From the NCBI GenBank assembly GCA_012729575.1, contig JAAYCW010000201.1, positions 981 to 64,980 of the forward strand: a stretch of DNA of 64,000 bases. Direction: 5' to 3'. A program made the position numbers and the translations under genes. The notes under the pieces are model-generated. The model searched no databases and had not been told where the DNA came from. It saw only the letters and a list, made by a program, of their open reading frames with translations. Below, piece after piece: positions 11,466-60,436 of this stretch. Origin of the DNA: Actinomycetota bacterium. GTDB lineage: Bacteria > Actinomycetota > Thermoleophilia > RBG-16-64-13. Within the stretch, counting starts at the first letter, position 1, and each line of letters starts with the position of its first letter.

Positions 11466-12398
11466 ATGCTAGCCATTCTCAAGACGACCCCGGCGGGTCT
11501 TACCCGATCGGAGGAGTTCGAACCCGGCTCCTGGATCGATCTGGTCAGCCCCACGGAGGAAGAGCTTCAGCGAGTGAGCGAGGAACTGGCGATCCCGCTC
11601 GATCTGCTGAGGGGCCCACTGGACGAGGAAGAAAAATCGCGGATAGACGTGGAGGATGGTCTGACTCAAGTCATCGTGGATATCCCCGTGCTGGTCAGGG
11701 AGGACGACCAACGGGGTTACGAGACTATCCCGCTTGGGATACTCGTACATCCCGACTACCTCATCACCACGTGTCTCAGGCCCAATCCGATCCTCGGCGA
11801 GTTCGAGAGAGGTAGCGTCCGGGGCTTCGCCACCTTCTGGAAGACCCGCTTCCTCCTTCAGATACTCCTACGGGTCTCGGCCTTCTACCTGCGCTATTTG
11901 GGACGCATCGATCGCGAGACCGACAAGCTGGAGACCGAACTCCGCCAGTCCATGAAGAACGAGGAGATCTTCGACCTATTGGGTTTGCAGAAGTCGCTGG
12001 TGTACTTCACCACCTCGCTGCGCGCGAACGAGGCGGTCCTGCAGAAGCTTCTTCGGACGAAGACGGTGAAGATGTACGAGGAGGATGAGGATCTTCTCGA
12101 GGATGTGATAGTTGAGAACAGGCAGGCCTCGGAGATGGCGAAGATCTACGCAGACATCCTTACAGGGATGATGGACGCCTTCACCTCGGTCATCTCGAAC
12201 AACCTGAACCGGGTCATGAAGTTCCTCACGTCCGTGACCATCCTTCTGTCCATTCCGACGATCGTGGCCTCCATGTACGGGATGAACGTCGACCTGCCGT
12301 TTCAGCACTACTCGCACGCGTTCGTGCTGACCATCGTGATCTGGTTGGTGATCTCGGGGGCTCTGGCGTTGGTGTTCTGGAGGAAGAGATACCTCTAG
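11466..12398 (+). CDS. corA: magnesium/cobalt transporter CorA
   Basis: C-terminal two-TM region with the signature YGMNV (GMN motif). Acidic N-terminal cytoplasmic domain. 310 aa. Confidence 0.9.
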   Translation: MLAILKTTPAGLTRSEEFEPGSWIDLVSPTEEELQRVSEELAIPLDLLRGPLDEEEKSRIDVEDGLTQVIVDIPVLVREDDQRGYETIPLGILVHPDYLITTCLRPNPILGEFERGSVRGFATFWKTRFLLQILLRVSAFYLRYLGRIDRETDKLETELRQSMKNEEIFDLLGLQKSLVYFTTSLRANEAVLQKLLRTKTVKMYEEDEDLLEDVIVENRQASEMAKIYADILTGMMDAFTSVISNNLNRVMKFLTSVTILLSIPTIVASMYGMNVDLPFQHYSHAFVLTIVIWLVISGALALVFWRKRYL

Positions 12399-14239
12399 CG
12401 CCAGGGTGAGAGCGGTGGTTGCGAAGGCGCGCGCGGCTTGCGCCGCGCGCGCGGTACTGGAGGTTCGAGTAGACTCAGTTCGTCTGTGACCTCAAGAGTC
12501 TCTATGGGGACTACCCGCATCCGCTTGACGCCGGACAAGACCGCAAGGCCCGCAGCCAAGAATACTACCGCCAAGGGACCCAGAACGCCATATGCCCCTG
12601 AGACCGTCTGGACTATCAGGAACCACCAGGCCCTCCACCACCCCACGCCGTATCCAACGGCGATGTAGACGTAGAGGGCGACCGGGGCGATCAGCCCAAG
12701 CAGGAGCACCGGCGCGTTGGTGGTCAGCCTTTGCCGCCAGAATGCGCCTGAATATACGGGCTCCGCGAAGCAAGTTGCGAGCGGCCATGCCCAGGCGATG
12801 GTGAGGCTGATGAGGATCAAGAAAGGTGACCGGGAAAGAAGGAGCACCATGCCTATTAGAATGCTGAAGAAGCCTGTACAGAGACGGGCCATCTCGGTGG
12901 TGGCCCTGCCTTCTCGAGGCCGCAAGTAGCCCAGAAAACGGCGGGAGACAACGAAGACCACGAGTCCGACCAAGACGAGGATAAGGGTGGGTGCGAGTCG
13001 TGGTTGGGTGCTCGGCCCCAGAGAGGTGGGTACCTGGAAGCGGTACAGAGGAATCATGCCGACCCGAGACAGTATGTACATGAGCAGCATCAGGAGCGCC
13101 AAGGGCAACGCGAAAGACAGAAGGTTACGCAAATGTCTGAATGCAGCCGAAGCGCTGACGCGCGAGGAAAAGAGCCAGATCAGAAGGACTGCGAGGGTGG
13201 GCAACAACATCAGCACGGCCAGAAGAGTGACGGCCTGCTGGGTCAGATACCGGCCCGACCGCAGCAGCAGAGCAGTGCCGGGATCAGACGGCACCTCGGT
13301 ACCGGAATCCAGAGATAGAATCAGTCGTTCGATGCTGGCACCCTGAGTAGCCATACCAGCGGCTGTGGGGCTGCCGCTTCCGTGGTCGTACAATCGGAGA
13401 GAGGCGATACCTCTACTCAGCCCCGCTACCTGATCGCCTCTGGAAAGAGAGAGGGCACGATCTGCCGCCTGGCTGAGCAGGCCGGGCACGTTCAGATCGA
13501 GGCCGACATCGGCCAACGTGCGGCTGACGAGTTGGATGTACCAGCCGGGGGTGGTGCCTTGCGGAGCGGTCACTCCTGCAGTCAGGGAGGTGGTACGCTC
13601 TTTCCCGAGGCCGTGGATCGAGAGGATCGTCGAGACATGCTCAGCGAGTCCGCTCTCCTTCAGGAAGTGGTCTATTCCCACTCCGCCCGTGCCGATATCC
13701 TCAGTGGATAAGAAGACCAGGGTCTTCTGGTGGGGTCTGGCCCAGAATACCTGGATCAGTTCCAGTAAGATCGCAGTCCCGCTCGCATAGTCCAGCGGCT
13801 GGAAGTTCACCACATCTTCTACGGTGGGAATGTCCCGCGGTGCTGCGAGAACGATTGTCTCTCTGCTCGCTCCCTGCAACACCACGGCGACATTGCGGAC
13901 CGTGATCTCCTCGTGACCCATCGGCGTCTGGAACTCAGTGACCGTGGCTAGATCGGGGTCGGGGAGTTTCTCGGCGATCCAATTGACTACATCGCGCGAA
14001 TCCGCTGAGTCCAGAGTACGGTCGGGATAGTACTTGAGCATGTCCTCCGCCGCGCGGAAGGCGCGGTTGGAGTCAAAGAAGGTGGGGCCGGTTGCCAACT
14101 CGACGCTCGATTCGGGAGAAGAGATGGACAGGAAGACCACGGCGCCCGCCAATATCAGGAGGCCGGCGCAGACAACGTACGCCGTCTTTCTCCATTGCCG
14201 GATGCGGTCGACGAGGCGCCGGCGGATAGTAAGGGGCAT
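12395..14239 (-). CDS. polytopic membrane protein with an M28-peptidase-like (possibly inactive) extracytoplasmic domain
   Basis: N-terminal TM helix, then a segment resembling M28 aminopeptidases (DYASGTAILLELIQVF...LVFLSTEDIGTGGVGIDHF). The HxD zinc motif is not evident. The C-terminal half has 8 or more predicted TM helices. Confidence 0.3.
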   Translation of the reverse strand: MPLTIRRRLVDRIRQWRKTAYVVCAGLLILAGAVVFLSISSPESSVELATGPTFFDSNRAFRAAEDMLKYYPDRTLDSADSRDVVNWIAEKLPDPDLATVTEFQTPMGHEEITVRNVAVVLQGASRETIVLAAPRDIPTVEDVVNFQPLDYASGTAILLELIQVFWARPHQKTLVFLSTEDIGTGGVGIDHFLKESGLAEHVSTILSIHGLGKERTTSLTAGVTAPQGTTPGWYIQLVSRTLADVGLDLNVPGLLSQAADRALSLSRGDQVAGLSRGIASLRLYDHGSGSPTAAGMATQGASIERLILSLDSGTEVPSDPGTALLLRSGRYLTQQAVTLLAVLMLLPTLAVLLIWLFSSRVSASAAFRHLRNLLSFALPLALLMLLMYILSRVGMIPLYRFQVPTSLGPSTQPRLAPTLILVLVGLVVFVVSRRFLGYLRPREGRATTEMARLCTGFFSILIGMVLLLSRSPFLILISLTIAWAWPLATCFAEPVYSGAFWRQRLTTNAPVLLLGLIAPVALYVYIAVGYGVGWWRAWWFLIVQTVSGAYGVLGPLAVVFLAAGLAVLSGVKRMRVVPIETLEVTDELSLLEPPVPRARRKPRAPSQPPLSPWR

Positions 14240-18402: not shown

Positions 18403-18831
18403 GTGTTGGACCGACGAGAGATCGAGGCGATCCTGCCTCATCGTGATCCATTTCTGTTGCTGGACCGGGTGATCGACCTGGTGCCGGGGGATCATGCAGT
18501 AGCGGAGAAAGACATCTTGGACGACGACTATGTCTTCAGAGGCCACTTCCCCGGACACCCCGTCTTTCCCGGTGTTTTGCAGCTCGAAGCCATGGCGCAG
18601 ACGGGGGCGGTAGCGCTTCTATCAGAACCCGAAGCCAGGGGCAAGATCATCCTCTTCGCCGGGGCCGACCGCGTGCGCTTTCGCCGCCCTGTCGTGCCGG
18701 GCGATGTTCTCCGTCTGGAGACACGCTTGACGGAACGCCGAGGAAGAATCGGCAGAGGCGAGGGAAAGGCGTTTGTCGGTTCAGAACTGGCCTGCAGCGG
18801 CACCTTGACCTTTGCGATAGCCGAATCCTGA
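18403..18831 (+). CDS. fabZ: 3-hydroxyacyl-ACP dehydratase FabZ
   Basis: Hotdog fold with the LPHRDPFLLLDRV and HFPGHPVFPGV signatures. GTG start with a GAGGGAG Shine-Dalgarno. Confidence 0.9.
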   Translation: MLDRREIEAILPHRDPFLLLDRVIDLVPGDHAVAEKDILDDDYVFRGHFPGHPVFPGVLQLEAMAQTGAVALLSEPEARGKIILFAGADRVRFRRPVVPGDVLRLETRLTERRGRIGRGEGKAFVGSELACSGTLTFAIAES

Positions 18832-19902
18832 GTGATGTCTGGGCCTCGACTCGCCTCCCTGGCCGGGAGACCCGTCACCATCGGTGGTTTGGGCTCCTAT
18901 CTACCCGGCAGGGTCCTGACCAACGAGGATCTAGCCGCAGTACTCAATACTTCGGATGCGTGGATAACGCAGCGCACCGGGATAAAGCAGCGTCGGGTGG
19001 CCGAGTCTGGAGCCAGTTCGTCAGACCTGGGCATAGCGGCTGCACGGGCAGCGTTATCGGACTCAGGGCTCTCGCCGGACGAGATCGGTCTGGTGATAAC
19101 CGCCACCATCTCCCCCGACCGGATCATGCCGGCGACGGCTTCGCGCGTCGCCTACGAATGCGGTTGCACGAATGCAGGCGCCTGCGATGTCTCGGCCGGT
19201 TGCACGGGCTTCGTATACGCTCTCTCCATGGCGGCGGGGATGGTGGCGGCCGGCCTCCACGATCACGTCTTGGTGGTCGGTGCCGAGGTGATCTCGCGAG
19301 TCCTGGACTGGGAGGACCGTTCCACGGCGGTACTCTTTGGCGACGGAGCGGGCGCGGTAGTCGTCTCGCCGGTCCCGGAAGCGGTGATGACCGGAGGGAG
19401 AGGGTCAGGCGGCATACTCGGTTTCGACCTGGGGTCAGACGGCTCGGGAGAAGAGATCCTGATGATCCCCGCTGGAGGATCGCGGTTGCCGGCATCATGC
19501 GCAACGGTGGAAGCTCGACAGCACTACATGCAGATGAATGGTAGAGAAGTGTACAAATTCGCTGTTCAAGTGGTGGCGCGATCTGCCGGGCGGGTTCTGG
19601 AAAAGTGTGGTCTGTCTGTATCCGATGTGGACCTGTTCGTACCCCATCAGGCTAATCTGCGTATCATCGAGAAAGCTATCAAGAAGCTCGGGATACATGA
19701 GGATAGGGTGTACACGAACCTCGAGAAGTACGGCAACACATCCTGCGCTTCCATCCCCCTGTGCTTGACCGAGGCCCGGGCAGAGGGCAGACTCAAGAAT
19801 GGTGATCTGGTGCTGCTGATGGGTTTCGGCGCCGGGCTGAGCTGGGGTGCGTGTCTGCTGGAATGGGGCTGCGGACGCGGCGCTGTCGACGAGAGGGGCT
19901 GA
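18832..19902 (+). CDS. fabH: 3-oxoacyl-ACP synthase III
   Basis: KAS III active-site Cys in AGCTGFVYAL, His in VPHQANLRII, Asn in GNTSCASIP. Confidence 0.92.
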   Translation: MMSGPRLASLAGRPVTIGGLGSYLPGRVLTNEDLAAVLNTSDAWITQRTGIKQRRVAESGASSSDLGIAAARAALSDSGLSPDEIGLVITATISPDRIMPATASRVAYECGCTNAGACDVSAGCTGFVYALSMAAGMVAAGLHDHVLVVGAEVISRVLDWEDRSTAVLFGDGAGAVVVSPVPEAVMTGGRGSGGILGFDLGSDGSGEEILMIPAGGSRLPASCATVEARQHYMQMNGREVYKFAVQVVARSAGRVLEKCGLSVSDVDLFVPHQANLRIIEKAIKKLGIHEDRVYTNLEKYGNTSCASIPLCLTEARAEGRLKNGDLVLLMGFGAGLSWGACLLEWGCGRGAVDERG

Positions 19903-19903
19903 T

Positions 19904-20845
19904 ATGGGAGGATTACTCGTCTTATGCCCCGGCCAGGGGAGCCAGGCGGCGGGAATGGCCGAGCATCTGTGGGATTATCCCGCCGCGAGGCAGGCGTTTA
20001 CCGAAGCCGGCGAGGTACTTGGGTGGGACATAGGTGAGTTGTGCCTGCACGGTTCCATGGATGAACTGACGCGCACCGATCGGACGCAGTTGGCCATCTT
20101 GGCGTGCAGCGTCGCGGTATGGAAGGTCTTGGAGTCTCAAGGTGCCGTCTGCACAGTTGGGGCGGGGCATTCTCTGGGAGACTTCTCGGCTCTCGTGGCC
20201 ACCGGACACATGTCCTTCCCGGACGCGCTGCGGGTGGTGGATGTGCGAGGCAGAGAAATGCAGGCCTGTGCCGAGGTGCGGGGTGGAACGATGGCCGCCG
20301 TCATCGGTCTGGATAACGAGGTCGTGGAAGAGGTGTGCTCCTCCTTGCCTGAGGTCTGGCTCGCCAACTACAACTCCCCCGGCCAGGTGGTTATCTCCGG
20401 GTCCATAGAATCGGTTCGGGCTGCGGGTGAGGCGGCCCAGGCCAAGGGCGCCCGGCGAGTGCTGGAACTGCCGGTGTCGGGGGCGTTCCATACCCCGTTC
20501 ATGGCTGGTGCGGCCGACGCGCTCGCGGAAGCCCTGGCGGCGGTCAGATTCAAGGTCGGCTGTGCGCGCTTCTTCTCGACCACAGAGGTAAGGTATCCGG
20601 CTCCTGAAGAGCTACCTGAAGTGCTGGCCCGGCAACTGATGTCGCCGGTCAAATTCATGCAGAGCGCACAGGCTCTGCTGACCGGGGAGGATGCTCCAGT
20701 GCGCGGCCTGGAGATCGGGCCCGGGAACGTGCTTACCGGATTGATGAAGAGGACTGCGCGTGATTTCCCAATGGGTGCCACTGGAGACGCCGACGCCTTG
20801 AGGAGCGCGCTGACTTTGGAAACGGAGGTTTCAGATGGGCAATGA
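19904..20845 (+). CDS. fabD: malonyl-CoA:ACP transacylase
   Basis: GQGSQ and GHSLGDFSAL active-site serine motifs. The ATG at 19904 is 1 nt after the fabH TGA stop. Confidence 0.9.
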   Translation: MGGLLVLCPGQGSQAAGMAEHLWDYPAARQAFTEAGEVLGWDIGELCLHGSMDELTRTDRTQLAILACSVAVWKVLESQGAVCTVGAGHSLGDFSALVATGHMSFPDALRVVDVRGREMQACAEVRGGTMAAVIGLDNEVVEEVCSSLPEVWLANYNSPGQVVISGSIESVRAAGEAAQAKGARRVLELPVSGAFHTPFMAGAADALAEALAAVRFKVGCARFFSTTEVRYPAPEELPEVLARQLMSPVKFMQSAQALLTGEDAPVRGLEIGPGNVLTGLMKRTARDFPMGATGDADALRSALTLETEVSDGQ

Positions 20846-21590
20846 GGCCGCACCGCTTGAAGGCCGGGTCGCTCTCGTCACGGGCGCAGCTCGAGGCATC
20901 GGCCGGGCCATCGCTCTGCGCCTGGCTGAGGATGGAGCCAAGGTGGCGATAGTCGATCTCTCTGAGAACGGGGGCGAGGCTGCACGTGAGATCGAACGGG
21001 TTACGGGGGGGCCGACGACCTTCGTGCGGGCAGATATCTCGAGAGAAGTGGAGGCTCGGGAGGCCGTGGCCGCCATTGAAAAGGCGCTGGGTCCCGTGGA
21101 CATTCTCGTCAATAACGCTGGGATCACGCGGGACGGTTTGGCCTTGGTCATGGATGAAGCCGATTGGGATGCCGTGTTGACGGTGAATCTTAAGGGAGCC
21201 TTCCTTATGAGCAAGGCGGTGCTCCGGGGGATGATCAAGCGGCGTCGGGGCTCCATCGTGAGCATCTCCAGTGTGGTGGCCCGGCGTGGTAATGCCGGTC
21301 AGGTCAACTACTCGGCGGCTAAGGCTGGGCTCATAGGTCTCACCAAGTCCCTTGCGAGAGAAGTGGCCTCGCGGAACGTTCGGGTCAATGCAGTTGCTCC
21401 TGGGTACATCGAGACGGAGATGACGGCGGCGCTGGAAGAAACGGCAAGAAACGCCATCATGAACCAAGTTCCGCTGGGACGGATCGGAAAGCCTGAGGCC
21501 GTAGCCGACGCCGTTGCCTTTCTGGCCGGGGACTCGGCCTCGTTCATCACCGGGGTGGTGTTGCCGGTAGACGGTGGTCTCGGTATCTAG
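20835..21590 (+). CDS. fabG: 3-oxoacyl-ACP reductase
   Basis: SDR with TGAARGIG cofactor motif, NNAG, and catalytic YSAAK. 251 aa. Confidence 0.9.
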   Translation: MGNEAAPLEGRVALVTGAARGIGRAIALRLAEDGAKVAIVDLSENGGEAAREIERVTGGPTTFVRADISREVEAREAVAAIEKALGPVDILVNNAGITRDGLALVMDEADWDAVLTVNLKGAFLMSKAVLRGMIKRRRGSIVSISSVVARRGNAGQVNYSAAKAGLIGLTKSLAREVASRNVRVNAVAPGYIETEMTAALEETARNAIMNQVPLGRIGKPEAVADAVAFLAGDSASFITGVVLPVDGGLGI

Positions 21591-21611
21591 GACGGATTAG
21601 GAGTCGCGGAT

Positions 21612-22874
21612 ATGAGCGGTGCTCTGGGGACGATCGAACTGAAGCGGGTGGTTATCACCGGACTGGGGATCATCTCGCCCGTCGGGACGGGGAAGGATGT
21701 CTTCCTCCAGGCTCTGTTGGCTGGACGCTCGGGTGTCAGGAGGATCGCGCGTTTCGACACGACGGAGTTCCCGGTCAAGATCGGAGCGGAGGTCCGGGAT
21801 TTCGACGCCTTGGCCTTCATCGACAAGAAGTGGGCCAAGCGCATGGACCGCTACGCGCAGTACGGCGTCGCCGCCGCTACGATGGCCCTGGAGGACTCCG
21901 GGTATCCAATCGGCGAGGATCCATTCGCCGTGGGAGCGCTTATCGGTTCGGGGGTGGGCGGTCTTGACACCTTCATGGAGCAGACCGGGATTCTTCTCGA
22001 GAAGGGCCCCACGCGGGTGAGTCCGTTCTTCATCCCGATGATGATCCCTAACATGGCCTCGGCCTGCAGTTCCATCCTGCTTGGGCTCAAGGGCCCGGTG
22101 AACGCCACCTGCACTGCATGCGCGGCAGGCACGATGGCGCTGGGGGACGCATTCTCGCTGATCAGGCGGGGGGATGCTACGGCCATGTTCGCCGGTGGAG
22201 CGGAAGCGGCGGTCAACCAAGTGGGAATGTCGGCATTCGCCGCCCTGCGGGCTATATCGTTTCGAAATGACGAGCCCGAGAGAGCCAGCCGGCCCTTTGA
22301 TGCAGACCGAGATGGATTCGTGATGGGGGAAGGTGCGGGAGTGCTCGTGCTGGAAGAGGCACAACACGCGCTCGATCGCGGAGCCCATATCTACGCGGAA
22401 GTGTGCGGCTACGGCTTGACGGGGGATGCCTCGCACCTCACCGAGCCTGATGAGACGGGAGAGCCGGCCGGCCTGGCCATGAGCAGAGCTATAAGGGATG
22501 CGGGGATCGACCCCTCCGAGGTCGATTACGTGAACGCACATGGGACGTCTACTCCTTTGGGCGACATCATGGAGACCCAAGCGATCAAGCGGGCACTGGG
22601 CGCTCACGCTGCGCAGGTGATGGTGAGTTCCAACAAGAGCATCTTCGGCCACTGTCTTGGTGCCGCCGGGGCGCTGGAGGCGGCGGCCACAGTGCTCTTC
22701 ATGGAGGTTGGCAGAGTGGCTCCCACTATCAACCTGGAGAACCCCGATCCAGCGTGTGATTTGGATTACGTTCCCAACGTGGCCAGAGACGCGCAGGTGG
22801 ATGTCGCCGTGTCAAACAGCTTCGGATTCGGCGGCCACAACGCAGCGATCGTGCTTCGCAGGTGGCATGGCTAA
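21612..22874 (+). CDS. fabF: 3-oxoacyl-ACP synthase II
   Basis: KAS II Cys (ATCTACAAG), His (HGTSTPLGD) and His (GFGGHNAAIVL) motifs. 420 aa. Confidence 0.9.
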   Translation: MSGALGTIELKRVVITGLGIISPVGTGKDVFLQALLAGRSGVRRIARFDTTEFPVKIGAEVRDFDALAFIDKKWAKRMDRYAQYGVAAATMALEDSGYPIGEDPFAVGALIGSGVGGLDTFMEQTGILLEKGPTRVSPFFIPMMIPNMASACSSILLGLKGPVNATCTACAAGTMALGDAFSLIRRGDATAMFAGGAEAAVNQVGMSAFAALRAISFRNDEPERASRPFDADRDGFVMGEGAGVLVLEEAQHALDRGAHIYAEVCGYGLTGDASHLTEPDETGEPAGLAMSRAIRDAGIDPSEVDYVNAHGTSTPLGDIMETQAIKRALGAHAAQVMVSSNKSIFGHCLGAAGALEAAATVLFMEVGRVAPTINLENPDPACDLDYVPNVARDAQVDVAVSNSFGFGGHNAAIVLRRWHG

Positions 22875-23715
22875 ATACGTCACGATACAGGTCGCTCGGA
22901 GGGAGACTCCGCCTGCGCCGCAGGCCCCAGGTGAGCACTGCAAGAAATGCAATGCCTCTCTGGCCGCGGGCGAGTTGGAACGTGCACTTCGGGTGTGTCC
23001 ACACTGTTCGTACCACTACCCTCTACCGGCGCACGAACGGATAGCCCAACTAGCCGACAAAGGCTCGGTCGGCTTCATCGCCGAAGAGGTGCAGGCCGTC
23101 GACCCGCTCGACTTCGTCGATGTCAAAACCTACCCCGAGCGTTTGTCGACCGCGAAGTTCGAGACCGGTTTGAGCGAGGCGTTTCTGGCGGCGCTGTGCG
23201 ATATCTCCGGGGTTCCAGCGGCGCTGGGGGTGTTAGATTTTCGATTCTTGGGCGGCTCGATGGGGTCGGTAGTGGGTGAGAGGTTCCATCGTCTTGCCAG
23301 GGCTGCAGTCGAAGAACGCCGGCCCCTGGTGGTTGTGGCCGGCTCAGGCGGCGCCCGCATGCAGGAGGGGCTGTTTTCCTTGATGCAGATGGCGAAGACC
23401 GTTGTGGCCGTACAGATGCTGGCGACTGCCCGGTTGCCCTACGTGGCCATCCTCACTCATCCGACCACAGGCGGCGTGTTCGCCAGTTTCGCCACTATTG
23501 CCGACGTCATCATGGCTGAACCCGGAGCCGTGATGAGCTTCGCGGGGGCTCGGATCATCGAACAGACGACCCGGGAGAAGCTGCCTCCTGGTTTCGGCTC
23601 TTCCGAATCGCAGCTGACACACGGGCAGGTCGACATGGTGGTCGACCGCAGGCAACTGAGGGAGAGGTTGGCGCTGTGCCTTTCCTTTCTGATGGGCGGT
23701 CAGACCGGTGGGTGA
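22867..23715 (+). CDS. accD: acetyl-CoA carboxylase carboxyltransferase beta subunit
   Basis: N-terminal Zn ribbon CKKCNASL...CPHCSYH followed by the carboxyltransferase domain (GGSMGSVVGE). The ATG at 22867 overlaps the fabF stop by 8 bp. Confidence 0.9.
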   Translation: MAKYVTIQVARRETPPAPQAPGEHCKKCNASLAAGELERALRVCPHCSYHYPLPAHERIAQLADKGSVGFIAEEVQAVDPLDFVDVKTYPERLSTAKFETGLSEAFLAALCDISGVPAALGVLDFRFLGGSMGSVVGERFHRLARAAVEERRPLVVVAGSGGARMQEGLFSLMQMAKTVVAVQMLATARLPYVAILTHPTTGGVFASFATIADVIMAEPGAVMSFAGARIIEQTTREKLPPGFGSSESQLTHGQVDMVVDRRQLRERLALCLSFLMGGQTGG

Positions 23716-24535
23716 GTCAAGGACACCCGAAGTCGCCTGGGAGAAGGTGCAGCTTGCGCGGCACCAAGAGCGACCTCAGACTCTTGACTACATCGCGCAG
23801 ATGGTGTCCGAATTCTTAGAGCTGAGTGGGGACCGTCTCCACGGCGACGATAAGGCAGTGGTGGGCGGGTTGGCCGTTGTGGGGACCCGGCGTGTGGTCC
23901 TTATGGGCCACCAGAAGGGCCACACTCTGCAAGAGCGTCAGGAGCGCAGCTTTGGTATGGCCAGGCCGGAGGGCTACCGCAAAGCCATACGTTTGGCTCG
24001 CCTCGGCGAGAAGTTTGCTCTACCCGTGGTGACGCTGGTGGACACGCCGGGTGCGTATCCCGGCAAGGACGCGGAGGAGGGCGGACAGGCCGGCGCAATC
24101 GCTCGGAGCATCGAGACGTTCGCACGTCTGATGGTTCCGACGGTGACCGTCATCATTGGAGAAGGTGGCTCCGGCGGCGCCCTTGCCTTGGCTGTCGCGG
24201 ACCGGGTTCTGATGCTTGAGAACTCCGTCTACTCTGTCATATCCCCGGAAGGCTGTGCTGCCCTGGTCTGGCGTGACGCGGCCGCGGCCGCCCAGGCCGC
24301 CGCCGCCCTTCGAGTCGGAGCTCAGGACCTCCTCAAATTAGGCCTGATTGACGTGGTGATCCCGGAGCCGGCAGGGGGTGCGCACGTCGACCACGCTGCA
24401 ACTGCCGAGGCGGTCATGCGGGAGATAGACCTTGCACTGAAGGAGCTGGAGGGGATCGATCCCAGCGAGCGGCTGCGTCTTAGATACGAGAAGTATCTGA
24501 ATATGGGAAGCTACGCGACGGCATACGGGAGATAA
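23708..24535 (+). CDS. accA: acetyl-CoA carboxylase carboxyltransferase alpha subunit
   Basis: Typical AccA sequence (LARHQERPQTLDYI, VTLVDTPGAYPG, GEGGSGGALALAVAD). 8-bp overlap with accD. Confidence 0.9.
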   Translation: MGESRTPEVAWEKVQLARHQERPQTLDYIAQMVSEFLELSGDRLHGDDKAVVGGLAVVGTRRVVLMGHQKGHTLQERQERSFGMARPEGYRKAIRLARLGEKFALPVVTLVDTPGAYPGKDAEEGGQAGAIARSIETFARLMVPTVTVIIGEGGSGGALALAVADRVLMLENSVYSVISPEGCAALVWRDAAAAAQAAAALRVGAQDLLKLGLIDVVIPEPAGGAHVDHAATAEAVMREIDLALKELEGIDPSERLRLRYEKYLNMGSYATAYGR

Positions 24536-31237: not shown

Positions 31238-31717
31238 ATGTCTATGGCGCCCGAAAACCGACATGCGCATCCGAATTACGCTTCGGGCGAGGACTACATC
31301 CTGGAGTTCCGCAGCTTCCGGTATGGCTTCAACACGATCGACTTCGGGCAGAGGGTGGAGATGGCTGCCGTAGAGCTCGGCTTGGTCGAGGCTGGAATGC
31401 TTCTCCACGACGAGCGTGCCGATCTGGTGCAACTGGTGGCCGGAGGAAGTGTCGAGTTCCCGGTCAGCCCTCTGGGGGAATATCTGCTGCAGCGCGGCGA
31501 CGAGGTGTTGAGTCTTCACGGTGAGGACCTCGTGTACTGGCTGCGAGAGTTGGTGTTCCGCAGTGCCTGGCTCGATTTGCGGCTGATTGAGGGACAACTT
31601 GAGGTCGCGTTTGACGACGAGAATGGGACATTTGCCTACTTTCCCGCCGGACATCGTTCGCGGCGGATAGGTCCGCCTCCTCATCCGTCCTGGCGCGAGG
31701 TGGCATACACCCGCTGA
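31238..31717 (+). CDS. hypothetical protein
   Basis: 159-aa ORF with GC-rich codon usage; no recognisable motif. Confidence 0.3.
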   Translation: MSMAPENRHAHPNYASGEDYILEFRSFRYGFNTIDFGQRVEMAAVELGLVEAGMLLHDERADLVQLVAGGSVEFPVSPLGEYLLQRGDEVLSLHGEDLVYWLRELVFRSAWLDLRLIEGQLEVAFDDENGTFAYFPAGHRSRRIGPPPHPSWREVAYTR

Positions 31718-31725
31718 GCGGTGCC

Positions 31726-32067
31726 ATGCCTGATAGATCCGTTCAGACGCTACGCCTGATTCTCAAGAAGGCGTTCAGCAGGTACTACTTGGCTTTGGCT
31801 ACGCCTGCCATAGCTGATCCGACGGAGGCTTTCGGCGCCGCCCAGGAATACCTGTCCGCGCTCAGAGCGGAGTTGGGTACGGAGGAGTTTATGCAGAGGC
31901 TGGACGACGAGACCACGACTCTGGCGGGCCAGATCGAACAGGACCTGCGGCAGAGATGGAGAGACCGCGACCATCCGCCGGAGATCGTCGATCTGGAAGA
32001 TCGGCTACGTGAGTGTCTGGAATACGGTCTTGCCAGACTGTACGGCAGCCCTGGGCAGTCCCGGTAA
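31726..32067 (+). CDS. hypothetical protein
   Basis: 113-aa ORF directly after the previous one; helical, acidic; no recognisable motif. Confidence 0.3.
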   Translation: MPDRSVQTLRLILKKAFSRYYLALATPAIADPTEAFGAAQEYLSALRAELGTEEFMQRLDDETTTLAGQIEQDLRQRWRDRDHPPEIVDLEDRLRECLEYGLARLYGSPGQSR

Positions 32068-32075
32068 GACCGCCG

Positions 32076-32723
32076 ATGACGGAGTTCTTCGAGAATTGGC
32101 TCATCCCGCTGCTACGCGACTACGGTCTGCTTATTGTGTTCTTGACAATGGCCGCCGAGAGCGCCTGTATCCTCATCCCGAGCGAGATTGTGGTCCCCTA
32201 CGGCGGCTTCTTGGCCGCCCAAGGTCACACGCATCTATGGATGGTGATCGCCGTAGCGACGGCGGCCAACCTGGTCGGGTCGATCATCGCCTACCTGGTG
32301 GGGCGGTACGGCGGCCGAGCATTGTTCTTGAAGTACGGACGCTATGTAGGCGTACGCACCCACCATCTGGACAAGGCCGACCAGTGGTTCGAGCGCCGGG
32401 GAGAGGTGACAGTCTTCTTCACACGCATGATGCCGGGAGTGCGGACCTTCATCTCCCTTCCGGCGGGGATCGCGAAGATGCCTGTGGGCAGGTTCTTGTT
32501 CTACTCTCTTCTAGGGGCGGTCCCGTGGAATGCTGCTCTGGCCTACCTGGGTTATGGAGCCGGCAAGGCTGCAGGGGAAGATCCTTGGGGCAGCCTACAG
32601 GAACAGTTCAGCCGCTACAACCACATCTTCTACATCGTGCTGGCAGTCGTTGTCGTAGCTTTGGTTGCCTGGGTATTGTGGCGTTGGCGGCGTCGCGAAT
32701 CTTCGGCGTCCGATGAGTCCTAG
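32076..32723 (+). CDS. DedA/SNARE-associated family membrane protein
   Basis: DedA signature ([50 protein letters not shown]). ATG at 32076. Confidence 0.8.
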
Positions 32724-33502
32724 AGCACCATACTGAGGAACTTCTGGGTGCGCGGTTCTTTCGGGCTGGCGATCATTTCTCGAGGGTCACCCTCCTCAAC
32801 GACCACTCCGCCGTCCATGAAGATCAACCTAGAGCCCACCTCGCGAGCGAAGCCCATCTCGTGCGTGACGACCACCATAGTCATTCCGGACTCCGCCAAG
32901 CTCTGCATGACGCCCAAGACTTCCGCGACCAGCTCGGGGTCAAGGGCGGAGGTGACCTCATCGAAGAGCATCATGTCGGGCTTCATGGCCAGAGCACGGG
33001 CTATCGCGACGCGCTGTTGCTGACCACCCGATAGCTCCTCCGGCAAGGCCTGTGCCTTGTCGGCCAGTCCCACTTGATCAAGCAGGTCGCGGGCAATCCT
33101 CTCAGCCTCCGCCCTAGACTTCCTCTGGACCTTCATAGGGGCCATCATCACGTTCTGCAAAGCGTTCTTGTGGGGGAACAGGTTGAAGCTCTGGAAGACC
33201 ATGCCGATCCGTTGTCGTATCTTGTTGGGATCGGTCCTTGGCCCATGCAGGTCCTCACCTTCGATGATCACCTTGCCCTTCTGGATCGGCTCAAGTCCGT
33301 TGATGCAGCGGAGCATGGTCGACTTACCCGATCCGGACGGTCCGATGACCACCACCACCTCTCCCTTCGTGACGGTGAGATTAATACCCTGTAGCACGTC
33401 AAGGTGTCCGAACGACTTGTGGACATTTACCAGTTCGATCATCGTATTGGTGCCTGGCACAGCAGGCAGCGGGCTCACGTCATCCTTGAACTTGCTGCTC
33501 AC
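32720..33502 (-). CDS. polar amino-acid ABC transporter ATP-binding protein
   Basis: Walker [13 protein letters not shown] signature [15 protein letters not shown]. Walker [12 protein letters not shown]. Confidence 0.9.
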
Positions 33503-34257
33503 CAGCCCTCACCCCCCTTGGGTACCTGACCAGCAATATCCGAATCGAATAGCTTCTTCTCAGCCTCTGGGGTGATGCCCGAAGGGGGCTTACCCCCCGG
33601 TTTCGACTTGCGGCGCCGGTTCTCCATCATGGCGGCGATCCGAATCAGGGGGATTGTGAAGGCGAGGTAGATAAGCGCTGCGACCGTCAGCGGTGTCGAG
33701 TTGGCGACTACCCCCATCTTCTCCTTAGCGGTGAACAGAAGTTCCGGAACCGAAATAACCGACATGAGAGCGGTGTCTTTGATCATTGCGATGAATTCGT
33801 TGGTGAGGGGTGGGACCACCAGCTTCACCGCCTGCGGAAGAATGACATAACGCATCGCTTGACCACCGGTCATGCCCAAAGAACGGGCCGCCTCGGTTTG
33901 ACCCTTGGGAATGGCCTGAATGCCGGCCCGAAAGATCTCCGCGGAGTAGGCGCCGTAACACAAGGTTAGACCAAGCACGCCCGAAGTCAGCTCGTTGAGC
34001 TTTATGCCCGCGTGGGGAAGGCCATAGTAGATGAAGATGAACAGCAGCAGCAACGGCAAGCCGCGAAAGACGTCGATGTATGCACCGGCCAAGTAACGAA
34101 GAGGGCGAAACCGTGAGAGGCGGATCAAGGATAGGATCAGTCCCCAGGTCCAGGCGCATATCAGGCCGAGCACCAGAACCTCGATCACGATAGGCAGCTG
34201 CTGGACGAGGAGCCAAAGCGAGTCCTTGAATATCTCCCCGTTGAAGAATGCGTTCAC
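33499..34257 (-). CDS. polar amino-acid ABC transporter permease
   Basis: EAA-like loop in a 5-TM permease (HisM/GlnP family). Overlaps the ATPase gene by 4 bp. Confidence 0.85.
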
Positions 34258-34391
34258 CAGACCACCTCCGGTCGCCTACTAGTCACCCTGCTTCAGCATA
34301 CAAGAGAGAAAAGGGTCAGAGCTCAAGCTCCGACCCTTTTCTGGAGACCGTACTCTCGATCGGCATGCCGAAGCCGGTGTTATCCGACAGA

Positions 34392-35237
34392 TCACTCGAC
34401 GCCGGTCAGGCCCCACTTGTCGCATATCTTCTGGTAGATGCCTTCCGCCTTGAGCTCCGCGAGTGCCGTATTCATGGCTTCCAGCAGACTCGTATTCTCC
34501 TTCTTGATGGCGTAGCCGTAATCGTTGACCGTCACGATGCCGCCGGTGTTGGCGAACTTCGCCTTGTAGTCTTCGTTTGTTTGGATGATATAGGCGTTGA
34601 CCGGCTCATCGTTCACGACGGCCTGGACCCGTTCCGCGGCCAGATCCTGGAATGCGGTCAGGATGTCAGGGTATTTCTTGATCTCCTTCACTCCCTCGAT
34701 CTCTTCTACGGCAAACTGGCCTGTGGTATCGACCTGCACGCCGACGATCATGCCGGCCAACTGATCGGCAGAGGTCACTGGAGCGTCGATGGGAGCTGTG
34801 ATAGCCAAGATGCCCGGCAGGTAGGCATCCGTGAAGTTGACCTGCTCGAGCCGCTCTTCGGTGATGCTCATGGCGGACATGATGATATCGTAGCGGTCGC
34901 CAAGAAGGCCAGGGATGATCCCGTCCCAAGCAGTCGACACCACCTGGAGTTTCAGACCCATCTTGTGCGCAAGAGCCGTGCACAGATCAACGTCGAAGCC
35001 CTTGTAGCCGCCGGCCTCATCAGAGAACTCCATCGGCGGGAAAGCGGTGTCAGAACCGCCCAGGATCCAGCCGTCCTCGATGGTCTCCGGTTTTTCGATA
35101 GCATCCGACTTCTCAACCGCTGCGATGAAGTCATCTACGTTCTCCTCCGCGTAGTCGCTCCCGCAACCCGCGGTCGCTGGTATGAGGGCCATCACCACCA
35201 GCAACAAAGCGACCAACAGAATATGATTCTTCTTCAA
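34392..35237 (-). CDS. amino-acid ABC transporter substrate-binding lipoprotein
   Basis: Signal peptide plus lipobox ATAGCGS. SBP_bac_3-like domain. 281 aa. Confidence 0.85.
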   Translation of the reverse strand: MKKNHILLVALLLVVMALIPATAGCGSDYAEENVDDFIAAVEKSDAIEKPETIEDGWILGGSDTAFPPMEFSDEAGGYKGFDVDLCTALAHKMGLKLQVVSTAWDGIIPGLLGDRYDIIMSAMSITEERLEQVNFTDAYLPGILAITAPIDAPVTSADQLAGMIVGVQVDTTGQFAVEEIEGVKEIKKYPDILTAFQDLAAERVQAVVNDEPVNAYIIQTNEDYKAKFANTGGIVTVNDYGYAIKKENTSLLEAMNTALAELKAEGIYQKICDKWGLTGVE

Positions 35238-35442
35238 CTCACCCTCCTCCTAGATGCGCGCACGGGTCTTTCGACGACAGAGATATCCGCGAGGACCCGA
35301 GTCGCAATCTGCATGACCATAACCCACAGTGTATCTTTTATCATGCCAAACAGTATCATGTCTTCGCTAACCTCGTGAATCTGCGCTGTACCAGACGACA
35401 GATCCTGATCTGATCAGCGCAGGGTATACTTCCGCTTCGATT

Positions 35443-36537
35443 ATGGGCCGTCCAAAGTCATCCATATCCGTGTCCGCCGCTTCTATCCTCGGTGCGGCAC
35501 CAGTTGTCGATGCGCTCTTCTGCGAGGAGACCGCGAGCGGTGGTGTGCGGTGCACTCTGTGCCCGCATCACTGCGTGGTGAGCGAGAACACCGAGGGACT
35601 CTGCAAGGTGCGCGGGGTGCGTGATGGTCGCCTGGTTGCGCTCACCTACGCTCGGCCTGCGACGATCATCAGTGACGAGATCGAGAAGAAACCGCTGTTT
35701 CACTTCCATCCCGGCACCCGCGCACTCTCGCTGGGCGGCTACGGCTGTAATGTGCTCTGTTCGGGGTGCCAGAATTGGCAGATTTCCCACGCAAGCGCGC
35801 GAACCGAGACCACTCGCCTGCCGGTGCTGATGCCGGCCGACGCAGTCGCCATGGCTCAGAAGCACAAGCTTGCGGGAGTAGTCTTCACTTACAACGACCC
35901 GGTGGTGTGGATCGAGTACGTGCATGATGTCTGCGCTGCCTTCAAGGAGGCCGGGCTCTACACGGCGTTCATAACGGCCGCCTATCTGAACGAGGATGCC
36001 TTGGATTATGTCGCGCCTGTGCTCGATGCTTTCAAGTTCGATCTGAAAGCGGCCACCCCCGAATCATGGGCCAACTTGACCAAGGTGAAGGATCCGGAAC
36101 CGGCCTACGCGGCGACCGTGCGCGCCAGAGAGGTACACGGCTGTCACGTGGAAGTCGTTTCCAACATCGTCCCGAGCATCAACGACGACGATGCCAGTCT
36201 GTCGGCCATGGCCTGCTGGGTCCGCGACAACCTCGGTCAGAATACACCGTGGCACGTGACGCGCTTCATCCCGGAATTCGAACTGTCGTATCTTGCCGCC
36301 ACTCCGATCAAGACCCTGGAGCGTGGGGTCCGGCTTGGCAAGGCGGCGGGGCTTAGGTTCGTCTACCTCGGCAATGTTCCCGACCATCCCGGGCGGCATA
36401 CCGTCTGTCCCGGATGTGGTCGGACGGTCATCCGCCGAGACGAGCCGAAGATCGACGGATCGGGAGTGGAGCGGGGGCTCTGTCTGGCCTGTGGCGAAGA
36501 TCTGGGAATCATCTGGGATGCGCGCGGGGTCTCCTGA
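35443..36537 (+). CDS. AmmeMemoRadiSam-system-type radical SAM enzyme (PFL-activase-like)
   Basis: N-terminal Cys-rich segment CTLCPHHCVVSENTEGLCKVRGVRDGRLV. EKKPLFHF motif. Radical SAM CX3CX2C (GCNVLCSGCQNWQIS). Confidence 0.65.
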   Translation: MGRPKSSISVSAASILGAAPVVDALFCEETASGGVRCTLCPHHCVVSENTEGLCKVRGVRDGRLVALTYARPATIISDEIEKKPLFHFHPGTRALSLGGYGCNVLCSGCQNWQISHASARTETTRLPVLMPADAVAMAQKHKLAGVVFTYNDPVVWIEYVHDVCAAFKEAGLYTAFITAAYLNEDALDYVAPVLDAFKFDLKAATPESWANLTKVKDPEPAYAATVRAREVHGCHVEVVSNIVPSINDDDASLSAMACWVRDNLGQNTPWHVTRFIPEFELSYLAATPIKTLERGVRLGKAAGLRFVYLGNVPDHPGRHTVCPGCGRTVIRRDEPKIDGSGVERGLCLACGEDLGIIWDARGVS

Positions 36538-36616
36538 CACGCCCGGCTTGTTTAAGGGCTCCCACATGACGGGTAGCATTTTGACGGAGTGAATGTGCGA
36601 ATGATCATCGGAGTCT

Positions 36617-37111
36617 GTGGAACCAATAGCTGAACAGACTGGCGGTCGGGGCGGGGGTGGGCGTGGGCCCGTATCCCTCGTCATACCATGTAGGGCCGAA
36701 TATGTCGGCCTCTGCCGGCTGGTTGCGGGCGCTATCGGGAACCGCGAATCGCTGGATGAAGAAACCATCGCCGACATGAAGCTGGTGGTGACCGAAGCCT
36801 GTACCTGCTTCGTTGCACACCCGGACGAACAGACTTCTCCTGACGCCGACGGAAGCGTCGGAGAATCACCAAATTCTTTGCGCGTCGACTTCAATGTGAC
36901 CGCGGACTCCTGGACCATCATCATCTCCGACCCGGAACGCCGGTGTCACATAGCGCGACTCGGTCGCTGCGACCCCAAGAGCGAGAATGCCATGGGACTC
37001 ACCATCATAAAGGCCCTTGTCGACCGGATGGAGCAAACGGACAGCGGGGACGAGGGTAGCGTCCTGCGCCTGGTCAAGCGGCTGTCGCCTCGAACAGAGC
37101 CGGCCGACTGA
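36617..37111 (+). CDS. anti-sigma regulatory factor-like protein (RsbW/HATPase_c family, probable pseudo-kinase)
   Basis: Matches the RsbW-like layout (DMKLVVTEACTCFVAH, LRVDFNVTADSWTIIISDPERR, GLTIIKALVDRM). The N-box Asn is replaced in TEACTC, so ATP binding is doubtful. Confidence 0.5.
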   Translation: MEPIAEQTGGRGGGGRGPVSLVIPCRAEYVGLCRLVAGAIGNRESLDEETIADMKLVVTEACTCFVAHPDEQTSPDADGSVGESPNSLRVDFNVTADSWTIIISDPERRCHIARLGRCDPKSENAMGLTIIKALVDRMEQTDSGDEGSVLRLVKRLSPRTEPAD

Positions 37112-37189: not shown

Positions 37190-39298
37190 ATGAGGCTTGC
37201 CGGTACCCGATGCCGTTTTACCCCGGTGATGGTGGCTACTCTTGCGGCTGTTCTCTGCATAACTCTATCGCTGGCCGCGTTTGTGGCCGTGGCTATGCTC
37301 TGCTTCCCGTCACCCGCGTTCGCATCACCCTCACCACTCTCTTTGATCGTCGATCGCCCGTTAAGCGCTATGGACGAGAGTCTGACTCTGCGCGTGGAGG
37401 GTGAAATGACGAGGTCGCTCGACGGGGACGATTTGGTTCTACACGTAAGAGGCCCCGCCGGGCAGTCACAAGTAGGGCAGTCTGGTCTCCGACTGCCGGA
37501 GGCTGCCAAGATCGTCGCAACCCTTGGCGCGACGGCGGCCACGGGTAGTGATGTAGCTGAGACCGTCGGGGTGGACCTGATCGCCGACCCTGCATCTGGA
37601 ATGTTAAGGGCTGAGATCTCGCTGGCAGACACGATACTGACCGAACCAGGCGCCTATCTGCTGGTTGTACAGCTGGAGTCGTTGGGTGAGGTGTCGGCGA
37701 GTGGACAAACCTGGGTGGGGAAGGCTGAAGTCCGGGACGAGCCGCTTGATCTTGCCTTCATCTGGCCGGTCTCTCTTGGGATCCACCGTGATACGGACGG
37801 ACATTTCTTCGATCGGTGCTTGGACGAAGCTGTAGGGCAGAACGCTGAAGATATTGGGGATCTTGGCGGTCTAGTGGCTCTCTCGAGCCTATTCCCCGAT
37901 TGGGAGTTCTCTCTGGCGCCGGAGCCTGTGCTGCTGACGCAACTCCGTGATATGGCCGATGGTTACGTCAGTGTCTCCGAGTCGGGGGATGAAGAGGAGA
38001 TATCGGCCAACGACCCGCCGGCGCTGTACGCAGCTGAGATACTGGCGGGGTTCGCTGCTCTCCACGGTGACCAGTCGGTAGAGGTGGTGGCCGGACCGTA
38101 CTGTAGCGCCGATCTCAGTGCGCTTGCATCTGAGGGGTGGCGGGATGGTCTGCAGCAGATCCTCATGGGCAAGCAGGAGATCCAACAGACTCTGGGATTG
38201 CAGACACCGCCGAACGGAGCTCGTTCTCCCGATCTGGACCTGACCAGCGATGCCGTCTTCTATTACGCCGAGGCGTCAATCGATCACGTGGTGGTCGACG
38301 CGGGCCTGCGGGACCTGCTGGCAGAGCCGGTCGCAGAAGGTACAGTCGCGGTCAGAGCGCGGAACTCCGCCAATAGTCGAGTGACCTTGGTCTTCGCGGA
38401 TACGGAGTTGAGTCATCACATGAGCTATCCGTGGGACGCGGGCGTCTTCTCGGCCGCATTGGCGGCGAAACTGGCTGCTGGGGAGACAAGTGCCCTGGTC
38501 TTGACTCCCGCTGTCGAATTCGAACTCATCCCGCGGGAGTATCTCGAAAGCATCGGGGAGATCCTCGACGGATCTGCATGGATCCGGACATTGACGCTGT
38601 CGGGACTACTGCGTGCTCACGGCCCGGATACCCGCCCGGTCCTGCTGATGCCCTCGACCGGGAACTCGGGAGGCTATATCGAGGACTCGCTTCTCTCAGC
38701 CGTGAAGGTCGCGCACGCCGCGGTTAGCGACTTGGGTGCCGTCGCCGACACCGTTCACGCTCCCGTGGAGGATGCTCACAGGTTGCTGTATATGGCGCAA
38801 AGCCGTTGGTGGTGGCGGGCTGAGACCAGTCCCCGGGAAGCCAGTATCGGCATGGACTACGCGGAAGAGGCGCGCTCGCTGGCTCAACAGGAGTTGGAGA
38901 AGATACGTCTCTTGGGGGGCGGTTCGAAAACCATCATGGGTGCGGAAGGAACGGTCGACGTGATCCTTCAAAACGGCGCGGAGTACCCGGTGACCGTGGA
39001 GGTAGAGTTAGCGGCACAAGGAATGCACCTACTTCAAGGAAGCTCGGTCGAACTCGAACTTGGACCCGGCCGAACGGAAATACAGGTGCCGCTCGCCGGG
39101 GGGGAAGGTTCACAGAGACTCGAGGTCGCACTCGTGGTCGGCGCCAGCGTCCTCGGGGAAACCGGCTACGATTTGCGCTTTGTCACGATCATGACCGTTC
39201 TGCCGTGGATAGTCGTTGCAGCGTTGGTGCTGGTGGCAGGTTTGGCGCTACTGATATATCGGTCGGTTCGGAAACGAAGAACCCGAAGAGCGGCCTGA
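37190..39298 (+). CDS. large secreted protein with a C-terminal membrane anchor, unknown function
   Basis: N-terminal signal/TM segment (VMVATLAAVLCITLSLAAFVAVAML). About 640-aa extracytoplasmic region. C-terminal TM helix plus a basic tail (VAALVLVAGLALLIYRSVRKRRTRRAA). Confidence 0.45.
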   Translation: MRLAGTRCRFTPVMVATLAAVLCITLSLAAFVAVAMLCFPSPAFASPSPLSLIVDRPLSAMDESLTLRVEGEMTRSLDGDDLVLHVRGPAGQSQVGQSGLRLPEAAKIVATLGATAATGSDVAETVGVDLIADPASGMLRAEISLADTILTEPGAYLLVVQLESLGEVSASGQTWVGKAEVRDEPLDLAFIWPVSLGIHRDTDGHFFDRCLDEAVGQNAEDIGDLGGLVALSSLFPDWEFSLAPEPVLLTQLRDMADGYVSVSESGDEEEISANDPPALYAAEILAGFAALHGDQSVEVVAGPYCSADLSALASEGWRDGLQQILMGKQEIQQTLGLQTPPNGARSPDLDLTSDAVFYYAEASIDHVVVDAGLRDLLAEPVAEGTVAVRARNSANSRVTLVFADTELSHHMSYPWDAGVFSAALAAKLAAGETSALVLTPAVEFELIPREYLESIGEILDGSAWIRTLTLSGLLRAHGPDTRPVLLMPSTGNSGGYIEDSLLSAVKVAHAAVSDLGAVADTVHAPVEDAHRLLYMAQSRWWWRAETSPREASIGMDYAEEARSLAQQELEKIRLLGGGSKTIMGAEGTVDVILQNGAEYPVTVEVELAAQGMHLLQGSSVELELGPGRTEIQVPLAGGEGSQRLEVALVVGASVLGETGYDLRFVTIMTVLPWIVVAALVLVAGLALLIYRSVRKRRTRRAA

Positions 39299-59966: not shown

Positions 59967-60432
59967 TGAACTGTGGGCCCGGGTGGCGGGGTATCTGGGT
60001 GCACATCACACAATGACCATCGCGACTGTTGCTCCGGGTGGGAACGTGCCCCATGCAGCGTGCGTCTTCTACGCTGTGGATGACGCCCTCCGGCTGGTGT
60101 TCCTGAGCAAGCCGGACAGCGTCCACGGGACTCACATCGGCAAGGCGGCACCCGTGGCGGTCACGGTCACGGAGACCTACGACGACTGGGAGATGATCCA
60201 GGGAGTGCAGCTCTGGGGAGAAGCGAGGCTTCTGAGTGGGGCGACGAAGGCGCGTGCGTTCACTCTTTACCTGGGCCGGTTCCCCTTCGTACGTGATTTG
60301 ATGGAACGTCCCGGCTTGACCGAGACGCTTCGGCGTATCGGGGTCTACCGAATCGTGCCTCAGAAGATAGCGTTCACCGACAATAGCACGGGGGTCTTTG
60401 GCCGAGAGATCCTCAGAACGGCTGCGGAGTGA
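59959..60432 (+). CDS. pyridoxamine 5'-phosphate oxidase-like FMN-binding split-barrel protein
   Basis: PNPOx-like fold (HHTMTIATVAPGGNVPHAACVFYAVDD). Probable GTG start overlapping the ubiX stop. The longest ORF starts at 59863, inside ubiX. Confidence 0.55.
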   Translation: MNDELWARVAGYLGAHHTMTIATVAPGGNVPHAACVFYAVDDALRLVFLSKPDSVHGTHIGKAAPVAVTVTETYDDWEMIQGVQLWGEARLLSGATKARAFTLYLGRFPFVRDLMERPGLTETLRRIGVYRIVPQKIAFTDNSTGVFGREILRTAAE

Positions 60433-60436
60433 CCGG

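Follow-up and report, generated by a model that had tools for sequence, protein, structure and literature searches.

Organization of the amrS locus

The window, i.e., the whole 64,000-nucleotide stretch of Actinomycetota DNA analyzed here, contains an open reading frame of 364 codons on the plus strand that runs from an ATG at 35443 to a stop codon ending at 36537. Its product is assigned below to AmrS, the radical SAM enzyme of the AmmeMemoRadiSam system. The gene lies between an ABC transporter operon and an anti-sigma-like gene, as a preliminary description of this DNA had stated and as Pfam annotation bears out. The features of the locus are:

32720–35237, minus strand: polar amino-acid ABC transporter (ATPase, permease, and binding protein; Pfam ABC_tran, BPD_transp_1, and SBP_bac_3)
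32720–33502, minus strand: ABC transporter ATPase
33499–34257, minus strand: ABC transporter permease
34392–35237, minus strand: SBP_bac_3 binding protein
35238–35442, no strand: divergent intergenic region of 205 bp between the binding-protein gene and amrS, presumably holding both promoters
35443–36537, plus strand: amrS, AmmeMemoRadiSam-system radical SAM enzyme, 364 aa; GTG 35470 is a possible alternative start
35551–35604, plus strand: N-terminal Cys4 module C37-x2-C40-x3-C44-x9-C54, presumed metal or auxiliary Fe-S site
35746–35769, plus strand: radical SAM motif C102-x3-C106-x2-C109 in GCNVLCSGCQNWQIS, inside the Pfam Radical_SAM match
36406–36492, plus strand: C-terminal Cys4 module C322-x2-C325 ... 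C347-x2-C350, probably zinc-ribbon-like
36617–37111, plus strand: HATPase_c_2 protein of RsbW-like anti-sigma/serine-kinase type, 164 aa (PF13581, 46.3 bits)
37190–39298, plus strand: 702-aa protein that matches DUF6049 weakly (PF19516; 25.5 bits vs a gathering score of 30.1)

No obvious Shine-Dalgarno sequence was seen upstream of the ATG at 35443. A GTG at 35470 is a possible alternative start, and one public gene call begins at residue 35 (330 aa). The stretch ‘ALFxE’ at residues 24–28 is kept in the homologues of the lineage, so the true start must be at or before approximately residue 23. Residues 101–115 (GCNVLCSGCQNWQIS) carry the CX3CX2C motif formed by C102, C106, and C109, and residues 78–88 read DEIEKKPLFHF; all of the motifs previously quoted for this protein, i.e., the cysteine cluster, EKKPLFHF, and GCNVLCSGCQNWQIS, are present. 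Public metagenome assemblies record an identical protein, in 34 blocks.

The closest NCBIfam models to the transporter binding protein are those of lysine/arginine/ornithine, glutamine, and cystine binding proteins, all of which scored below cutoff. RsbW models fell far under their cutoffs for the HATPase_c_2 protein, and the 702-aa protein had no NCBIfam match. The three genes amrS, HATPase_c_2, and the 702-aa gene share a strand, with gaps of 80 bp and 79 bp between them. Consensus scans found no promoter-like site in the 205-bp intergenic region and no terminator-like site; a weak promoter-like site lies at 36581–36608, ahead of the HATPase_c_2 gene.

We compared this arrangement with four orthologous loci of the lineage (L007, L009, L097, and L098). 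HATPase_c_2 follows amrS in L007, L009, and L098 and is missing in L097, whereas orthologues of the DUF6049-like protein (~690 aa) are found downstream of amrS in all four. Synteny with the relatives extends over the entire 20 kb (HD, MFS, LppX, VTT, ABC, citrate synthase, and POR genes), which indicates that the order of the genes around amrS is a product of limited divergence and not of selection for linkage. Neither the HATPase_c_2 nor the DUF6049-like gene adjoins amrS in any of the 80 listed loci from outside the lineage that are described below.

Three variations were observed within these loci. In L097, the earliest-branching lineage member, a 234-bp gap (L097:11086–11320) occupies the place where the HATPase_c_2 gene otherwise sits. 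In L007, a gene for a 220-aa TatD-family-nuclease-associated radical SAM protein (L007:9339–10001, plus strand; TIGR04038, 171 bits) lies directly upstream of amrS, with its stop codon overlapping the amrS start; this gene is absent from the window, L009, L097, and L098. Two adjacent plus-strand ORFs of the window without Pfam or NCBIfam matches, at 31238–31717 (157–159 aa) and 31726–32067 (113 aa), are conserved in every lineage locus that was inspected, with their order unchanged.

The window also encodes a 2-oxoacid:ferredoxin oxidoreductase, an aldehyde:ferredoxin oxidoreductase, and BcrAD/BadFG-type proteins, a predicted complement that is consistent with an anaerobe. The host belongs to a lineage of uncultured anaerobic Actinomycetota, some relatives of which are labelled Thermoleophilia.

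The protein belongs to the AmrS family

Comparison with NCBIfam models placed the protein in TIGR04337 (AmmeMemoSam_rS) with a score of 274.7 bits (E = 8.9e-82; curated cutoff 220), the match spanning residues 26–359 of the protein and positions 3–334 of the 349 in the model. The next best model, PflA (TIGR02493), reached 40 bits against a cutoff of 231.75; TIGR02494 reached 35 bits (cutoff 174), and CutD, HypD-AE, HPD-AE, and other activase models reached 19–30 bits (cutoffs 360–500). Taken together, all glycyl-radical activase models including PflA scored 19–40 bits against cutoffs of 130–500. Pfam recognized the generic Radical_SAM domain only. The membership of TIGR04337 proposed in the preliminary description is confirmed by these scores, and an assignment to PflA or another activase, which it had named as the outcome speaking against that proposal, was not obtained.

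More than 100 protein clusters at 70–83% identity to AmrS were found among its 120 best matches. The named relatives in this set come from metagenome-assembled genomes labelled Actinobacteria, Actinomycetia, or Thermoleophilia, and NCBI already lists several of them (77–79% identity) under the name ‘AmmeMemoRadiSam system radical SAM enzyme’. The window protein shares with the family the CX3CX2C motif in a GCNxxCxxCQN context, the (D)xIEKKPL motif, both Cys4 modules, and a length of ~340–360 aa. Judged from its sequence, the ORF is a bona fide and intact AmrS of an already catalogued family.

Conservation and divergence of the lineage

Conservation was assessed in 83 AmrS sequences from outside the lineage and eight from within it. 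The radical SAM cysteines C102, C106, and C109 were 100% conserved across this sample. Each cysteine of the N-terminal Cys4 module was present in at least 99% of the 83 non-lineage sequences and in 8/8 lineage sequences, and these cysteines were invariant in alignments A1 and A2. Those of the C-terminal module were conserved in 96–99% of non-lineage and 8/8 lineage sequences; the motif is missing from the shorter AmrS of Segatella. AmrS of the window retains 11 of the 11 family-conserved cysteines, as well as N103, Q110, and N111 in the radical SAM motif and E81, K82, K83, P84, and L85. Of the 69 positions with a conservation of 85% or more among non-lineage sequences, it retains 61 (median for the family 67, minimum 60).

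Purifying selection acts on the gene: comparisons with four orthologues gave dN/dS values of 0.10–0.15, with dS near saturation, and 106 alignment columns were invariant across 33 lineage AmrS sequences.

The lineage nevertheless differs from the remainder of the family. The score of 274.7 bits on TIGR04337 is lower than those of all ten other members that were scored (279–466 bits). Four positions (79, 179, 209, and 241) that are 86–100% conserved outside the lineage carry other residues within it: P79, invariant elsewhere in the family, is glutamate in 8/8 lineage sequences, Y209 (98% elsewhere) is tryptophan in 8/8, and N179A and L241N are likewise fixed in 8/8. A neighbour-joining tree, built without support values, placed the lineage on a long stem and as sister to a group containing a Chloroflexota/Dehalococcoidia clade. 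Among the matches listed, 7 of the 11 best-matching non-lineage loci had an adjacent partner gene of the AMMECR1 or Memo type (L015, L016, L017, L019, L020, L023, and L024). As the related Chloroflexota clade mostly keeps adjacent or fused partners, adjacency has perhaps been lost on the way to the Actinomycetota lineage. The divergence of the lineage, i.e., its long stem and fixed substitutions, allows for a shift in partner or substrate use, but does not show one.

Predicted fold and chemistry

A sequence search of the PDB with AmrS returned a sole match, the pyruvate formate-lyase (PFL)-activating enzyme 3C8F (E = 5.6e-4). An AlphaFold model of AmrS had a mean pLDDT of 73.7 and a pTM of 0.78, with low confidence in the cluster-binding loop (residues 100–124) and in residues 67–80. 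The closest Foldseek match of this model was again PFL-activating enzyme 3C8F (E = 2e-10; target TM 0.70), followed by lipoyl synthase, NifB, RlmN, HydE, and viperin. Among solved structures, PflA (PDB 3C8F/3CB8; TIGR02493) is thus nearest in both sequence and fold, with a compact radical SAM core that forms a partial barrel and has a protein as its substrate. However, it is only ~17% identical to AmrS of the window and has neither the Cys4 module found at the N terminus of the latter nor the zinc-ribbon-like one at its C terminus.

By homology, C102, C106, and C109 would bind a [4Fe-4S] cluster that would reductively cleave S-adenosylmethionine to yield a 5'-deoxyadenosyl radical, which in turn would abstract a hydrogen atom from the substrate of AmrS. 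The catalytic core of the enzyme would fold as a compact barrel like that of the pyruvate formate-lyase activase, with a family-specific Cys4 module on either side; both modules are probably metal-binding and may help to hold a macromolecular substrate or partner. This combination of an activase-like barrel with two Cys4 modules suggests that the substrate or partner is a macromolecule.

AMMECR1 and Memo genes are absent from the surroundings of amrS

AMMECR1 genes persistently neighbour those of a radical SAM enzyme and a ring-opening-dioxygenase-like protein, with fusions also occurring, and a shared pathway has been predicted, possibly a modification of RNA bases that uses the conserved cysteine of AMMECR1 (Balaji and Aravind, PMC2034487). 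‘Memo-Ammecr1 systems’ are also cited in PMC7159879. In the literature that was searched, no AmrS had an experimentally established function.

We searched for Memo (PF01875) and AMMECR1 (PF01871) genes with profiles seeded from two Memo+AMMECR1 fusion proteins annotated amrB, encoded on Ideonella and Segatella plasmids, in which both domains were confirmed by Pfam. The profiles were iterated on the 80 listed amrS loci, growing to 25–28 sequences each, and run against six-frame translations of the window, same-region copies (L001–L006), and orthologue loci (L007–L009). The window matches the ENA contig ERZ27268616:k141_385971 (124,116 bp) exactly at both ends, which gave access to flanks on the same contig of 7.6 kb to the left (L094) and 8.2 kb to the right (L096), for a total of 79.8 kb.

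Neither Memo nor AMMECR1 was detected with all filters off in the six frames of these 79.8 kb, of the same-region copies, or of the orthologue loci L007–L009, the best E-values being at least 1. Pfam annotation of the genes in the window and flanks (~80 kb) likewise contained no Memo and no AMMECR1 domain; it also contained no glycyl-radical enzyme gene (PFL-like, Gly_radical). The local absence of both partners that had been noted earlier is therefore confirmed across 79.8 kb of the same contig. Partners encoded just outside the window, which had been named as evidence against an orphan gene, were found neither in the 7.6 kb to the left nor in the 8.2 kb to the right. We also inspected the neighbourhoods of homologues, as had been proposed: precomputed Pfam annotation of four orthologues (L007, L009, L097, and L098) showed no Memo or AMMECR1 within ±10 kb. 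One of these, L007, is from a 3.56 Mb relative, the 3.56 Mb lineage contig being ERZ25039495:contig_18476.

Stand-alone amrS genes are common

We asked how often amrS adjoins its partners by listing 80 amrS loci from different GTDB species representatives (33–44% identity), obtained by a search of genome contigs. A partner (Memo and/or AMMECR1) was found within the available flank in 24 of these 80 loci. Among the listed loci flanked on each side by 5 kb or more, 13/33 had a partner and 20/33 (61%) had none. The two domains differed: a partner was found in 13 of 24 well-flanked bacterial loci and in none of nine archaeal ones, leaving 11/24 bacterial and 9/9 archaeal loci partner-less. Across all archaeal amrS loci, well-flanked or otherwise, none of the 24 among the matches listed had an adjacent partner. 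The nine partner-less loci that were scored against TIGR04337 all passed (279–466 bits), which indicates that they are real family members.

Full-length amrS-like genes were also found on six plasmids, two of which carry Memo/AMMECR1 on the same replicon and four of which do not. The annotated amrS of Trichlorobacter lovleyi stands alone beside yicC, gmk, and nadD. A plasmid search for actinobacterial AMMECR1/Memo returned only the Ideonella and Segatella fusions, while a match on a Mycobacterium plasmid (H7) was partial and had no partner nearby.

These counts do not support, as a rule, the earlier statement that members of the family are normally encoded with, or fused to, their partners; a partner accompanied amrS in 13 of the 33 well-flanked listed loci. 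The description of the window gene as an ‘orphan’ holds for its local context, but not as an oddity, given that the stand-alone gene is the majority state in the sample. Because this is the commonest arrangement, the window locus is ordinary in this respect; only a genome-wide lack of the partners would set it apart.

For comparison, the AmrS-AmrB-AmrA cassettes of the Ideonella plasmid (L010), Segatella (L012), and a member of the Chloroflexia (L016) contain a homologous radical SAM component (33–44% identity). They differ from the window in having a Memo+AMMECR1 fusion beside amrS or fused to it, whereas the window has none. Several unusual partner architectures were seen among the listed loci. 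In the Chloroflexia MAG, a single frame of ~833 codons (L016:9965–12463, plus strand) joins amrS, a short Memo domain, and AMMECR1 in a triple fusion. A truncated or divergent Memo domain (~100 bits, vs ~300 elsewhere) is fused to a full AMMECR1 in Chloroflexota and Thermovorax loci (L015:11081–12406, L019:11011–12357, L024:11052–12449, and L071:8549–9964). In a KSB1 MAG (L054:11031–13078), a Memo-AMMECR1 fusion is directly followed by a second, stand-alone AMMECR1 gene.

Partner use of AmrS

We consider it likely that the window encodes a functional AmrS of the usual pathway, with AmrA and AmrB encoded elsewhere in the genome. The enzyme would act in one pathway with these AMMECR1-type (AmrA) and Memo-type (AmrB) proteins; partners encoded elsewhere seem to be the norm for archaea and to occur in about half of bacteria. 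The TIGR04337 family is defined by genome-wide co-occurrence with its two partners, according to its TIGRFAMs description. Given this definition and the base rate of adjacency, there is a good chance that unlinked partners are present in the genome of the lineage; as no partner was seen around amrS or its four orthologues, they remain an assumption.

An AmrS that has become independent of its partners, with AMMECR1 and Memo lost and the enzyme acting on a changed substrate, either by itself or together with a new partner, is in our view unlikely. The ~80 kb of contig and the surroundings of the four orthologues are free of partners, as such a loss would predict, yet non-adjacency is the majority state of the family and thus says little about partner loss. 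The long branch, the lowest TIGR04337 score of those compared, and the fixation of P79E, Y209W, N179A, and L241N at otherwise near-invariant positions would also fit this reading, as would the adjacent or fused partners of the sister-group Chloroflexota clade, linkage having perhaps been lost in the present lineage. On the other hand, all of the cysteine modules are complete, most of the conserved positions are retained, and the co-occurrence on which the family is defined extends to both partners. There is a small chance that this order-level lineage of anaerobic Actinomycetota has kept a strongly conserved but divergent AmrS while losing AMMECR1 and Memo, so that the function of the enzyme is separable from the three-protein system. 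Decay of the gene into a relic after loss of the AmmeMemoRadiSam system could likewise account for a score that is low for the family and for the lack of partners nearby; however, the frame is intact, dN/dS is low, 106 columns are invariant within the lineage, and the catalytic and metal-binding cysteines are all present. We rejected a relic or pseudogene on the basis of dN/dS and motif retention, and regard it as the least probable of the readings considered, with next to no chance of being correct.

Two further readings concern what AmrS might act on or with. It could form a functional unit with one or both of its downstream neighbours, the HATPase_c_2 protein and the DUF6049-like protein of 702 aa, or act on a product of the upstream transporter. 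The common strand and short gaps are compatible with this, as is the order amrS, HATPase_c_2, and ~690-aa gene kept in orthologues at 70–76% identity; but the entire 20-kb region is syntenic in these same relatives, the HATPase_c_2 gene has a promoter-like site ahead of it, and L007 has an unrelated radical SAM gene between transporter and amrS. We rejected a functional link to either of the two downstream neighbours since neither recurs at amrS in the 80 diverse listed loci and HATPase_c_2 is missing in L097, and consider a unit of this kind very unlikely. Even less credit is due to the possibility that the protein is a glycyl-radical-enzyme activase mis-filed as AmrS. JGI pipelines call many of the relatives ‘pyruvate formate lyase activating enzyme’, and the PFL-activating enzyme is the nearest solved sequence and fold. 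The HMM scores, on which we rejected a PflA-type identity, nevertheless pass TIGR04337 and fall far below cutoff for PflA and the other activase models; moreover, the N- and C-terminal Cys4 modules are specific to AmrS and the 80-kb region has no annotated glycyl-radical enzyme gene.

The AmmeMemoRadiSam system is widespread and has human homologues, AMMECR1 and MEMO1. A partner-free AmrS, if true, would be a useful handle on this system and a natural ‘minimal’ case in which to study AmrS function. The present evidence gives a normal family member in the commonest arrangement and does not establish a partner-free case. As a by-product, the analysis corrects the assumption that amrS normally adjoins its partners: among the listed loci, adjacency to AMMECR1/Memo is confined to bacteria and to approximately half of their well-flanked loci. 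With adjacency at this level in bacteria and in 0/24 archaeal loci listed, missing neighbours are no flag for ‘orphans’. The window locus itself differs from the related Chloroflexota clade, where AmrA and AmrB genes are adjacent or fused, in their absence within ~80 kb; its protein differs from the family in its lower HMM score and four substitutions.

Other features of the contig

Several additional features were noted away from amrS. A compact fatty-acid synthesis cluster at 18403–24535 (plus strand) encodes a FabA/FabZ-like dehydratase, a malonyl-CoA:ACP transacylase, a ketoreductase, a ketoacyl synthase, and an AccA-like carboxyltransferase. A 614-aa ORF at 12395–14239 (minus strand) has a coding-like codon composition and no Pfam match. 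Toward the right end of the window, the gene of ORF 60398–62176 starts later, at ATG 60437, and that of ORF 62601–63971 runs past the window edge. Approximately 6–7 kb beyond this edge, a baeRF_family10 (bacterial/archaeal release-factor-like) gene follows a 96-aa ORF (L096:19796–20941).
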